Below the pieces are notes generated by a model that worked only from the letters and a program-made list of their open reading frames with translations, had not been told where the DNA came from and made no database searches. DNA of 64,000 bases, taken from Chthonomonadaceae bacterium. GTDB taxonomy: Bacteria; Armatimonadota; Chthonomonadetes; Chthonomonadales; Chthonomonadaceae. Both the position numbers and the translations under genes were made by a program. Below, in pieces: positions 5,750 through 9,422 of the stretch. The DNA lies in the NCBI GenBank assembly GCA_035650735.1, contig DASRGZ010000120.1:1-64000 (forward strand), in the 5' to 3' direction. Positions within the stretch are counted from its first letter, which is position 1, and every line of letters begins with the position of its first letter.

Positions 5750-7609
5750 ATGAACGCGCCAGCCCCGAACAAGCCGCCCAAGATCCCCTTCGACAGCCTG
5801 ACCCTGCGGGTGGTCGTTGCGGAACTGCGCCGCCAGCTTATCGGCGGACAGATTCAGGACATGCGCCAGCCCACGCCGACCGAGCTGCTGCTGGGCGTTC
5901 GCAGCCAGGGCCGCAGCTTCCTGCTCCTGCTCTCCGCCGACGCCCGACTCGCCCGCGCCCACCTGACGGCGACGCGCCGACCGAACCCGCCCACGCCGCC
6001 CAATTTCTGTATGCTCCTGCGCAAATGGATCGTAGGATATACGATCCGGGACATCCGCCAGCGAGATTTCGACCGCGTTCTGGAGATCGAGGTCGCCTCG
6101 CGGCAGGAGGGCGAGCCAACGACGGTGACGCTCATCGCGGAGTTGATGGGCAAGCATAGCAACCTGATCCTGGTCAACGCGCACGGGACGGTCCTGGACG
6201 CGGCCAAGCGCATCACCCATCGCATTAACCGCCAGCGCGAGACACTGCCCGGCCTGCCCTACCAGCCGCCCCCCGAACCGGCGGGCAAAGCGGACCCGTT
6301 CGCGCCCGATGCCCTGGAGCGCGCTCTGGAGGCGGTGCGCGCCCTCCCGGAAGTGTCAGAGAAAACGCTGGCCCGGCGTCTGCTGGAAACCTTTATGGGG
6401 ATGTCGCCGTTTCTGGCTGGGGAATTGGCGGCGCGAGCGGCGGAGTACCTAATCCCCCGGCCCCCTTCCCTACAAGGGAAGGGGGTGGCAGAGGGTTTCC
6501 CGCAAAGCAACGGAATGACGGAGAGTTCTTCTGCGGCGGGCGTTGCAGAGAGGCTGAGGGCGGCGTGGGAGGCAGTATTTGGCGCGGCGGCGCGCGAGGC
6601 GTATGCGCCGGTGCTGGTGTGGGACGAAAATGGGCAGCCGGTGGGCGCGTATCCGTTTCCCCTCCTACAATGGCCCGCAGAGGCGCAGCAGCCCGTTCCC
6701 GATCTCAACCTGGCCCTCGATACGGCCTTTACCGCCGCGCAAGAGCGCGCCGAGCTCGAGGCGGTCGCCGGGGAGCTGCGCGGCAAGATCGCCCGCGAGA
6801 TCAAGCGGCTGGAACATCAGCGGCAGTCGGTGGAGCGGACGGGACAGGAGGCGGCGCGCGCCGAGGAGTATAAGCAAAACGGAGAGCTTATTCTCGCCAA
6901 CCTCTGGCGCATCCATCCGGGCGAAACTGCCGTGACCGTGCAGGACTACTTTGACCCCGCCCTGCCCGACCGCACCATCCCCCTCGATCCCCAACTCTCC
7001 CCGCAAGAGAACGCCGAAGCCTGTTTCCGCCGCTATCGAAAAGCGCGCGACGGCCAGGAAGCGGCGCGGGAGTATGGCGCCAGAATCGAGGCGGCGCTCA
7101 GCCGACTTCAGGAAGCGCAGGCGCGGCTGGAAGCCCTGGAGACGGCGGAGGCGGCGCGAGACCTGCGCGCCGAGTTGGTGGAGAGCGGGCTGCTGCGGGA
7201 GAGCGCTGAAGAGGCGGGCGCGCGCGAAGCCCAGCTCGCCGGCCCCGACCTCCAGGGCCACAAGATACGCCGCCTCGTCACGCCGGAGGGCTATGAGATT
7301 TTTATCGGAGAGACGGCCACCGCCAACGACTTCCTGATCACCCGCCTCGCCGCGCCCAATGACATCTGGCTGCATGTCCGCGCCGCCGCCAGCGCCCACG
7401 TCCTTATCCGCACGCACGGTCGCCCCGACGCGGTTCCGCGCTCGGTGCTGGAGCAGGCCGCCCGGCTCTGCGCCCGGCACAGCAGCCAGAAACACTCCTC
7501 GCTGGTCGCCGTAGACTACACGCTCAAAAAGTACGTCCGCAAGCCGCGCGGAGCCGCGCCCGGCAGCGCCGACTACCACCACGAAACCACGCTGGAAGTC
7601 ACGCCCTAG
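5750..7609 (+). CDS. rqcH: Rqc2/NFACT family ribosome quality control protein (FbpA-like)
   Basis: FDSLTL, FCMLLRK, FDRVLE, ELMGKHSNLILV, DIWLHVR and VDYTLKKYVRKP motifs. Confidence 0.92.
   Translation: MNAPAPNKPPKIPFDSLTLRVVVAELRRQLIGGQIQDMRQPTPTELLLGVRSQGRSFLLLLSADARLARAHLTATRRPNPPTPPNFCMLLRKWIVGYTIRDIRQRDFDRVLEIEVASRQEGEPTTVTLIAELMGKHSNLILVNAHGTVLDAAKRITHRINRQRETLPGLPYQPPPEPAGKADPFAPDALERALEAVRALPEVSEKTLARRLLETFMGMSPFLAGELAARAAEYLIPRPPSLQGKGVAEGFPQSNGMTESSSAAGVAERLRAAWEAVFGAAAREAYAPVLVWDENGQPVGAYPFPLLQWPAEAQQPVPDLNLALDTAFTAAQERAELEAVAGELRGKIAREIKRLEHQRQSVERTGQEAARAEEYKQNGELILANLWRIHPGETAVTVQDYFDPALPDRTIPLDPQLSPQENAEACFRRYRKARDGQEAAREYGARIEAALSRLQEAQARLEALETAEAARDLRAELVESGLLRESAEEAGAREAQLAGPDLQGHKIRRLVTPEGYEIFIGETATANDFLITRLAAPNDIWLHVRAAASAHVLIRTHGRPDAVPRSVLEQAARLCARHSSQKHSSLVAVDYTLKKYVRKPRGAAPGSADYHHETTLEVTP
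6448..6486. repeat. palindromic repeat copy embedded in-frame in rqcH
   Basis: CCTAATCCCCCGGCCCCCTTCCCTACAAGGGAAGGGGG closely matches the reverse complement of the 973-1007 intergenic repeat. Confidence 0.75.
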
Positions 7610-8694
7610 ATGGACAGCATACGGTCGAGCGCGATGCGCGCGTCTGCGGCAATCTCCGGCTTGACCTTGATCTGGTTGCGCACTTCGCCCTTGACCAGCC
7701 CCTCCAGCGCCCACAGCAGATAGTGGGGATGGATGCGGTACATCGTCGAACACGGGCAGACGACGGGGTCCAGGCAGAAAATGGTCTTGTCCGGATGCTC
7801 ATGCGCCAGGCGGCTGACCAGGTTGATCTCGGTGCCGACGGCCCAGATCGTGCCTGCCGGAGCCTCCGCGATGGTCTTGATGATAAACTCGGTCGAGCCG
7901 TTCTTATCGGCAGCCTGCACCACATCCAGCGAGCATTCGGGATGCACGATGACGTTGACGCCGGGATATTCGGCCCGCGCCTTCTCGATCTGGCCGACAT
8001 TAAAGCGGGCATGAACCGAGCAGTGCCCCTTCCAGAGCAGCACGCGCTTGGCCCGAACCTCCTCCGGGGTCACGCCCCCGAACGGCCTGCGCGGGTCCCA
8101 GACCAGCATATCGCGCTCCGGGTCCAGGCCGAGAGCGACCGCCGTGTTGCGCCCCAGGTGCTGATCGGGGAAGAACAGCAGCTTCTCGCCCCGCTCCAGC
8201 GCCCACTGCACCACCTTGCGCGCGTTGGAGGAGGTGCAGGCTGCGCCGCCATGACGCCCGACGAACGCCTTGAGCGCCGCCGTCGAGTTGACATAGGTGA
8301 TCGGGATGACCTTAGAGACGTCGGTGGCGGTCGCCAGGTCTTCCCAGCAGGACTCGACCTGCCCGATGCTGGCCATGTCCGCCATCGAGCAGCCCGCGCT
8401 CAGGTTGGGCAGGAGGACGATCTGGTTCGCGGCGGTGAGGATGTCGGCGGACTCGGCCATGAAGTGAACGCCGCAAAAGACGATATAGGCCGCCTCCGGG
8501 TGCGCGGCGGCCAGTTGCGAGAGCTTGAGGCTATCGCCGCGAAAATCGGCCCATTTGATGATCTCGTCGCGCTGATAGTGGTGACCGAGGATGAGGAGGT
8601 CTTCGCCCAGGCAGCGGCGTGCCGTGGCGATACGCGCGTCGGTCTCCTCCGGCGTGAGCTGAACCAGCTCCTTCGGAAGGGGTTGCTGAAACAT
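7606..8694 (-). CDS. nadA: quinolinate synthase
   Basis: GHHYQ, FCGVHFMAE, GCSMAD, GHCSVH, HPEC, CPCSTM; ATG 8694 with AAGGAG SD. Confidence 0.97.
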   Translation of the reverse strand: MFQQPLPKELVQLTPEETDARIATARRCLGEDLLILGHHYQRDEIIKWADFRGDSLKLSQLAAAHPEAAYIVFCGVHFMAESADILTAANQIVLLPNLSAGCSMADMASIGQVESCWEDLATATDVSKVIPITYVNSTAALKAFVGRHGGAACTSSNARKVVQWALERGEKLLFFPDQHLGRNTAVALGLDPERDMLVWDPRRPFGGVTPEEVRAKRVLLWKGHCSVHARFNVGQIEKARAEYPGVNVIVHPECSLDVVQAADKNGSTEFIIKTIAEAPAGTIWAVGTEINLVSRLAHEHPDKTIFCLDPVVCPCSTMYRIHPHYLLWALEGLVKGEVRNQIKVKPEIAADARIALDRMLSI

Positions 8695-8704
8695 GGATTC
8701 TGAA

Positions 8705-8790
8705 CTCCTTTGGGCGCGCAGTTGGCGGCAGGCTGCCGGAACTCTAATCCGGCCAACCTCTCCAACGGGGATGTTGACATCGCCCAGAAC
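8705..8790 (-). ncRNA. candidate NAD+-I (nadA motif) riboswitch aptamer
   Basis: UGGGCG..CAACAUCCCC-GUUGG..GCCGGA-loop-UCCGGC-AGC..CCAAC-UG..CGCCCA directly 5' of the nadA SD; resembles the NAD+-I domain as recalled from the literature. Confidence 0.65.
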
Positions 8791-8904
8791 GTGGGTTTTG
8801 GGAAAGCTTCGCCTCCAAAGGCGCATGTCGCCTTTGTTCCAATTCTTACTCTATACTACGATGCGGCCCGGTTAAAAGTGGCGCGAACGCCCGTTTCGCT
8901 CACA

Positions 8905-9297
8905 CTATTTCGTCTCATTTTCGGTCGCGGCACGGCGGCGCGTTATCTCGACGCCCACCGAGGCGGCAATGGCATTCATCGGCGGGAACACCTTCTGAAC
9001 GCGCAGCCGCACGGACTGCACCGCCGGGAATTCGGCCAGGATCACCTCGGCCAGACGGCCCACCAGCGCCTCCAGCAGGCGAAACTGCTCCTCCGTGCCG
9101 ACCTGGACGATGCGCTTAGCGACGCGGGAATAGTTGACGGTATCGCTCAGGCGGTCGCTGGCGGCAGCCGGGCGCGTATCCACCGCCAGGCAGACATCCA
9201 CCAGATAGCGATGCCCTACCGTCTGTTCGTGGTCGGAAGCGCCGTGATAGGCGTAGAACTCCAGGCCGTTGATGAGTATGTGGTCAGCTTCATCCAT
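8905..9297 (-). CDS. folB: dihydroneopterin aldolase
   Basis: FYAYHG, SDRLSDTVNY, FRLLEAL, VGVEITR. Confidence 0.95.
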   Translation of the reverse strand: MDEADHILINGLEFYAYHGASDHEQTVGHRYLVDVCLAVDTRPAAASDRLSDTVNYSRVAKRIVQVGTEEQFRLLEALVGRLAEVILAEFPAVQSVRLRVQKVFPPMNAIAASVGVEITRRRAATENETK

Positions 9298-9422
9298 AGG
9301 TACGCAAGAGAGCGCAACCGAAACGCGCGGCGTATTATTGCCGTACAATTATTGTACCAGAGAGAACGAGCGAAAGCAGTCCATTTTACCGCTTTCGAGA
9401 TTTGCTTCTTGACGGAATAGAC

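Follow-up and report, generated by a model that had tools for sequence, protein, structure and literature searches.

The minus strand of the 64,000-nt stretch of DNA analysed here (the window) almost certainly carries, at 8786-8711, a homologue of the NAD+-I riboswitch (nadA motif), just before the ribosome-binding site of nadA. On sequence comparison its aptamer is of the stand-alone domain-2 type, and its third stem is a private elaboration. We consider binding of the ADP moiety likely; that this putative aptamer works as a translational OFF switch of nadA we judge to be evenly balanced.

The open reading frame downstream of the element encodes quinolinate synthase (NadA, 362 aa; 7606..8694, minus strand, AUG at 8694) and scored 320.7 bits in the NCBIfam profile search, over the TIGR00550 cut-off of 262.9. 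The element thus occupies the position upstream of nadA that is typical of NAD+-I. The gene preceding nadA is folB (8905..9348, minus strand; TIGR00525 over the NCBIfam cut-off), and the intergenic gap, bounded by the folB end at 8905 and the nadA start at 8694, measures 210 nt. A scan of this region of the window for promoters and terminators returned no full sigma-70 promoter and no terminator-like site; a possible -10 hexamer lies at 8853..8858 (minus strand). Apparently folB also precedes nadA in the relatives represented by leaders L002, L005, L016, L018, L024 and L027 and, judged from upstream sequence, it sometimes ends right before the nadA leader; the element may thus be contained in a two-gene folB-nadA transcript.

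Read along the minus strand and named by the NAD+-I crystal numbering, the element opens with the 5' strand of P1 (8775..8786), whose last two nucleotides, C6 (8776) and A7 (8775), belong to the ADP-binding pocket. The 8-nt ACAUCCCC bulge follows (J1, 8767..8774); it was placed by the RF03013 alignment and corresponds to the ligand and Mg2+ site of NAD+-I described in the available text of PMC7297122. The 5' strand of P1a (8762..8766, G16 at 8766) leads into a variable insert (8726..8761) that here forms two stacked stems and lacks the GYG loop of domain 1. The 3' strand of P1a (8721..8725, C45 at 8721) and the 3' strand of P1 (8711..8720, including U46 at 8720 and G47 at 8719) complete the structure, and the Shine-Dalgarno sequence (SD) AAGGAG stands immediately 3' of P1 (8705..8710); an SD-like purine run is present in 66 of 69 leaders. 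The P1 strands and the 5' strand of P1a were assigned from the fold, and the insert and the 3' strand of P1a from comparison of leaders; the numbered positions guided both P1 strands and the 3' strand of P1a, the relatives' leaders the 5' strand of P1a, and compensatory changes the 5' strand of P1. The sequence quoted in the original prediction was found on the minus strand at the place given for it.

The Rfam model RF03013 matches 8719-8776 with 22.6 bits (E = 0.013). The proposed check against the Rfam nadA model therefore yielded a match, but one below the gathering cut-off of 37.5 bits, and no gathering-level match to any Rfam family occurs in the window. Folded alone, 8710-8790 adopts P1, the 8-nt bulge and P1a as its minimum free energy (MFE) structure (z = -2.51; 3 of 200 shuffles as good). 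The 12-nt core occurs a single time in the 6.5-Mb genome, and R2, a model built from the new leaders, finds one site there, before nadA; nadB and nadC are present on other contigs, yet have no R2 site. Taken with the conserved leaders of relatives, the sub-threshold match and the fold bear out the earlier claim of an NAD+-I-like riboswitch in front of nadA. The claim that it lies outside the Acidobacteria also holds. The best named relatives of NadA (74-83% identity) all belong to the Chthonomonadaceae or Chthonomonadales, phylum Armatimonadota, and the NadA tree agrees, so that by this sequence evidence an acidobacterial genome is very unlikely.

Conservation was assessed in 150 nadA leaders from Armatimonadota, picked to spread over families and not at random, in which relatives are not independent samples. 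The core is present in 69 of these, always as one copy. It occurs in 35 of 36 leaders of the window's own family (f1, the window included), 12 of 22 in f3, the only leader of f2, all 13 of f16, 6 of 16 in f11, 1 of 2 in f35 and one Fimbriimonadales locus. It is absent from the remaining families and from all 14 leaders of a more distant NadA type. When the 81 leaders without the core were searched with a model and no filters, the best E was 0.52, and the 4 positive controls were recovered. Leader L196 (genome G031) is the only one of f1 without the motif, and the nadA of its genome matches in two pieces.

The alignment of relatives' leaders suggested by the original prediction revealed compensatory changes in the stems. 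In an unfitted MAFFT alignment of the 21 leaders with a continuous P1, 91.2% of cells pair, compared with 64.1% after shuffling and 25-41% after sliding, and 11 of 14 pairs vary on both sides. In an alignment of 46 rows, where two P1 registers are mixed, 81.9% paired against 72.6%. P1, the ACANCCCC bulge and P1a, with the pairs C6-G47, A7-U46 and G16-C45, are all found in the window, and every ADP-contact nucleotide is kept across the 69 leaders, an invariance that is partly imposed by the search pattern. The bulge and its flanking pairs persist in six families or more, alongside freely covarying stems.

When R2 was run over 151 genomes of the phylum it gave 23 matches, 21 of them at nadA leaders and 2, both weak, within ORFs. 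In a Chloroflexota-centred sample of the same size it returned 4 weak matches, all inside ORFs and none near nadA. A loose pattern search over 401 genomes was discarded as chance level, having matched 387 of them and the reversed controls too. In a quick, midpoint-rooted tree of 52 NadA rows, the motif-bearing Armatimonadota form one clade (SH-aLRT 96) separate from the acidobacterial one; this grouping suggests that the motif is an old feature of the phylum.

The published NAD+-I arrangement of two domains in tandem is not found in the window, and the predicted single-domain form was upheld across the phylum, where none of the 69 core-bearing leaders has two cores. As a control, 151 genomes centred on Acidobacteriota were searched: 9 of them score above the Rfam cut-off, each with two domains before nadA, and this sample contains no complete single-domain form. 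At least 120 metagenome loci matched, and of the 80 examined 64 are tandems, 2 are of tandem type interrupted by the contig end, and 3 are Armatimonadota-type singles before nadA. The other 11 of the 80 have no nadA match downstream and look like chance, one of them with only 100 nt of sequence. Cores in tandems are spaced by 61-115 nt. In 22 of the single leaders a -10-like hexamer stands within 55 nt of C6, a shorter distance than this spacing, so that a first domain would not fit; elsewhere, as in L002 and L005, the gene upstream seems to stop just before the motif.

Which of the two domains the element represents can be read from P1a. In the available text of PMC7297122, domain 1 has a 7-bp P1a closed by an AGYG loop, of which G36 pairs with C14 and G38 with C13. 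Neither this stem nor this loop is found in the window, and the three-stem, domain-1-like reading of the element was not sustained: the third stem is a variable insert, in which the register of the domain-1 loop carries no GYG. Across the single leaders GYG stands in that register in 1 of 69 (not the window), versus 59 of 64 domain-1 copies in the metagenome tandems examined. C13, paired with J2 in domain 1, is variable in 9 of 69 leaders, and 65 of the 69 have U at position 11. The span from G16 to C45 ranges from 12 to 93 nt among relatives, the shortest being a 4-bp tetraloop hairpin. In addition, the three genuine R2 matches in the Acidobacteriota sample all land on domain 2 of tandems. 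The missing GYG register, the variable P1a and these matches together lead to the stand-alone domain-2 assignment.

The window element accordingly resembles NAD+-I domain 2, as RF03013 and the available text of PMC6859854 and PMC7708056 describe it, in C6-G47, A7-U46, G16-C45 and the bulge (with N mostly U), in a P1a of free length without the AGYG loop, and in being the last structure before the nadA SD, adjoining the ribosome-binding site. Unlike acidobacterial domain 2, it has no domain 1 upstream, its P1 is longer and GC-rich, a 5' CCRC is conserved, and the phylum is a different one. Moreover, the purine run of acidobacterial domain 2 starts inside P1' (AAGGCGGA in 47 of 64 tandems examined), whereas here no ribosome-binding nucleotides are held in the 3' strand of P1' and the SD lies beyond P1. 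With domain 1 (PMC7297122, available text) it shares the ligand-pocket nucleotides and the bulge, but not the P1a and its loop. Because the element is not a tandem, falls below the Rfam cut-off and leaves its ribosome-binding site outside P1', it is a variant of NAD+-I and not a plain member. NAD+-II (pnuC motif), by the published descriptions available, is likewise single-domain and tied to NAD+ metabolism; it differs in its triple helix and long-range pseudoknot and in its gene, and no Rfam match to it was found here.

The available portions of the literature state that neither NAD+-I domain occurs alone (PMC6859854), that no single-domain examples are known (PMC10702441) and that two aptamers are invariably present in the class (PMC9481103). 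One published single-domain relative was found, the ubiB motif of Nocardia (PMC6859854). Compared by its description in the available text only, that motif is likewise related to the nadA motif and built of one aptamer, but it is a variant of domain 1, precedes ubiB, has a separate ribosome-binding-site hairpin and counts nine representatives; in the window the gene is nadA and the domain-1 loop is absent. Our literature search, which left subscription papers mostly uncovered, found no single-domain nadA riboswitch and none in Armatimonadota, though some could be listed in the supplementary material of PMC5737381 and PMC11109978. A term search of the available main text of PMC11109978 and PMC8632094 met no mention of Chthonomonadales/Armatimonadota-type taxa. 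The RF03013 cut-off misses every single-domain form, with no match above it in 151 genomes of the phylum. In one published model, as far as the sources are available, the two domains share one NAD+ molecule, and in another domain 2 is a millimolar sensor. The dozens of natural leaders with domain 2 only, some with a P1a hairpin of 12 nt, keep the fold without domain 1, and so speak against ligand sharing as a strict requirement. As small natural RNAs, these leaders also lend themselves to binding, structure and reporter work, in which the ligand and role of domain 2 are directly testable.

A CCRC element, in the window at 8791..8794 (minus strand) within an A/C-rich stretch, recurs in 50 of 69 leaders, as against 47 of 276 background windows, and is missing from the other 19 leaders; in most cases C6 follows it at 16-20 nt. 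The segment around 8790-8801 had been taken for a decayed second core. It holds this CCRC and, given the frequency of CCRC in leaders, it is conserved and not decaying; relaxed second cores (up to 2 mismatches) at tandem spacing occur at background rate, in 4 of 69 single leaders versus 5 of 68 background windows. Neither hairpin nor covariation tests found a pairing partner for CCRC. As a hairpin competing for the 5' strand of P1 it reached p ≤ 0.1 in 3 of 35 leaders of f1, 2 of 12 of f3 and 6 of the 13, closely related, leaders of f16, and this candidate was set aside as lacking family-wide support. When CCRC or C13 was compared with other columns in 37 leaders, the best uncorrected p was 0.003, with no Watson-Crick pattern and partly from one genus. 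In leaders L012, L013 and L014, all of one genus, CCUC replaces CCRC and the SD is more distant; the U of CCUC could pair with the A before the GG of the SD.

In acidobacterial tandems the 3' strand of the domain-1 P1a is CCAC in 30 of 64 examined, some 20 nt upstream of domain 2, a placement much like that of the lone CCRC. The likeness, seen in sequence, may reflect ancestry or coincidence. It is conceivable, but distinctly improbable, that a lone domain 2 and its 5' CCRC strand make up a complete, compact NAD+ sensor in which CCRC folds along P1 to the pocket. If so, CCRC would supply what domain 1 or a missing co-ligand gives in the tandem, possibly including recognition of nicotinamide; this would account for the ability of the RNA family to distinguish NAD+ from ATP, and domain 2 would then seem to be the basic unit of regulation, to which domain 1 was added.

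In the regulatory mechanism that we propose, the pocket would bind the ADP moiety as described in the available text of PMC7297122, through C6-G47, stacking of A8 and Mg2+. Loss of the J1-J2 (GYG) contact made binding about 35-fold weaker, and domain 2 had a KD of 3.4 mM, in the accessible part of PMC7708056. A KD of about 3.4 mM would be near cellular NAD+ and ATP levels and would suit a low-affinity sensor. High NAD+, or another ADP-containing nucleotide, would dock the bulge and stiffen P1 beside the SD; the stiffened P1 would reduce 30S loading and with it nadA translation. CCRC probably takes part, either in a short contact with the GG of the SD or as a stand-in for J2. A pseudoknot between the SD and the C-stack of the bulge is unlikely on geometric grounds, since a 3-nt linker, as in the window's family, would seem unable to reach across P1.

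Secondary-structure modelling did not produce masking of the SD. Enforcing the aptamer, as compared with blocking P1, raised the pairing of the SD in 2 of 69 leaders and lowered it in 27, and the SD of the window is 0.27 unpaired with or without the aptamer. The acidobacterial mechanism, in which P1' masks the ribosome-binding site, therefore does not carry over at the level of secondary structure and, on these models, any switch must be tertiary, kinetic or due to crowding of the ribosome site. In several families the aptamer secondary structure is predicted without ligand (about 0.95 in f16). The SD is about 7-23 nt from G47 in four families and 36-59 nt in f11 and f35. The aptamer-bearing leaders in question (L111, L120, L200, L208, L219, L258, L259 and L307) are mostly without CCRC and often have a second hairpin between aptamer and SD, and the f11 aptamers begin near a -10-like site; f11 and f35 probably use a different expression platform.

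The original prediction offered another route to control, in which an upstream segment (8810-8821) would either pair with and mask the SD or fold into a hairpin of its own. The pairing exists in this genome: the segment pairs with the 3' strand of P1 and the SD at -13.9 kcal/mol (3 of 200 shuffles as good), and this is the MFE fold when the RNA begins at 8830. The alternative hairpin is also predicted, as a genome-specific 8-bp stem (8816..8836, minus strand) that overlaps part of the segment in the centroid fold of 8700-8845; in an RNA begun at 8845 the segment is buried in it. The possible -10 hexamer at 8858-8853 would place the transcription start upstream of this hairpin. Comparable anti-SD pairing (p ≤ 0.05) occurs in 7 of 61 leaders and, within the window's family, in 2 of 35, itself counted. 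Thus the pairing stands, but it is not conserved, and a switch in which 8810-8821 masks the SD by displacing P1 is exceedingly improbable; as the pairing competes with P1, ligand binding would turn a biosynthetic gene on.

The ligand and the output of the proposed OFF switch have alternatives of their own. In the available text of the two studies concerned, neither in-line probing (PMC6859854) nor ITC (PMC10702441) detected binding by domain 2 on its own. The same fold and OFF logic could therefore serve a ligand that is more than the ADP moiety: the RNA would read nicotinamide or NMN, or a pathway intermediate, or would depend on a protein or other co-ligand, with CCRC giving specificity. NMN or a co-ligand is proposed in the available parts of PMC6859854 and PMC9481103, and an undiscovered domain-2 ligand in those of PMC7708056; the fixed distance of CCRC from C6, the failure to find its pairing partner and the occurrence of the motif only before nadA, in its own genome and, two weak ORF matches aside, in the 151 phylum genomes, point the same way. 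We nevertheless regard such a ligand as unlikely, because all ADP-contact nucleotides are retained, a crystal structure of domain 2 has NAD+ in this pocket (PMC7708056, accessible part) and CCRC is not found in every leader. The two negative binding studies would also fit a structural leader that is conserved, or a relic, in which metabolite sensing has been lost, as would the lack of the motif in 10 of 22 f3 and 10 of 16 f11 leaders. That reading is very improbable in view of the unpaired 8-nt bulge and flanking pairs preserved amid freely covarying stems, and of the 81 core-negative leaders, among which no degenerate version was found.

An ADP-moiety sensor acting on transcription or RNA stability (pausing, Rho or decay) and not on ribosome access is improbable, somewhat more so than such a different ligand. 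It would account for the lack of SD masking in the models, the widely varying SD distance and an A/C-rich 5' stretch that is unpaired in many folds. Against it, the window region has no terminator-like site, and the short distance from P1 to the SD in four families is as in the translational domain 2 of Acidobacteriota.

Two families without the motif carry another signal upstream of nadA. A palindrome of the TGTGA-N6-TCACA type, resembling a Rex (or CRP-type) operator, is present in 16 of the 17 leaders of the motif-less families f6 and f8, namely L243, L246, L248, L249, L252-L254, L260 and L263 of f6 and L226, L229, L231 and L234-L237 of f8. Overall it occurs in 17 of 81 motif-less leaders versus 2 of 69 motif-bearing ones. 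PF06971, presumably the N-terminal domain of Rex, was found in all five genomes tested, including that of the window. The palindromes in the motif-less families fit NAD(H)-linked control of nadA. Several Chloroflexota nadA leaders (L079, L083, L084, L091, L095, L097, L101 and L110) share a different palindrome, of the TTAGTGT-N7-ACACTAA type, which in our estimation resembles an NrtR-type operator.
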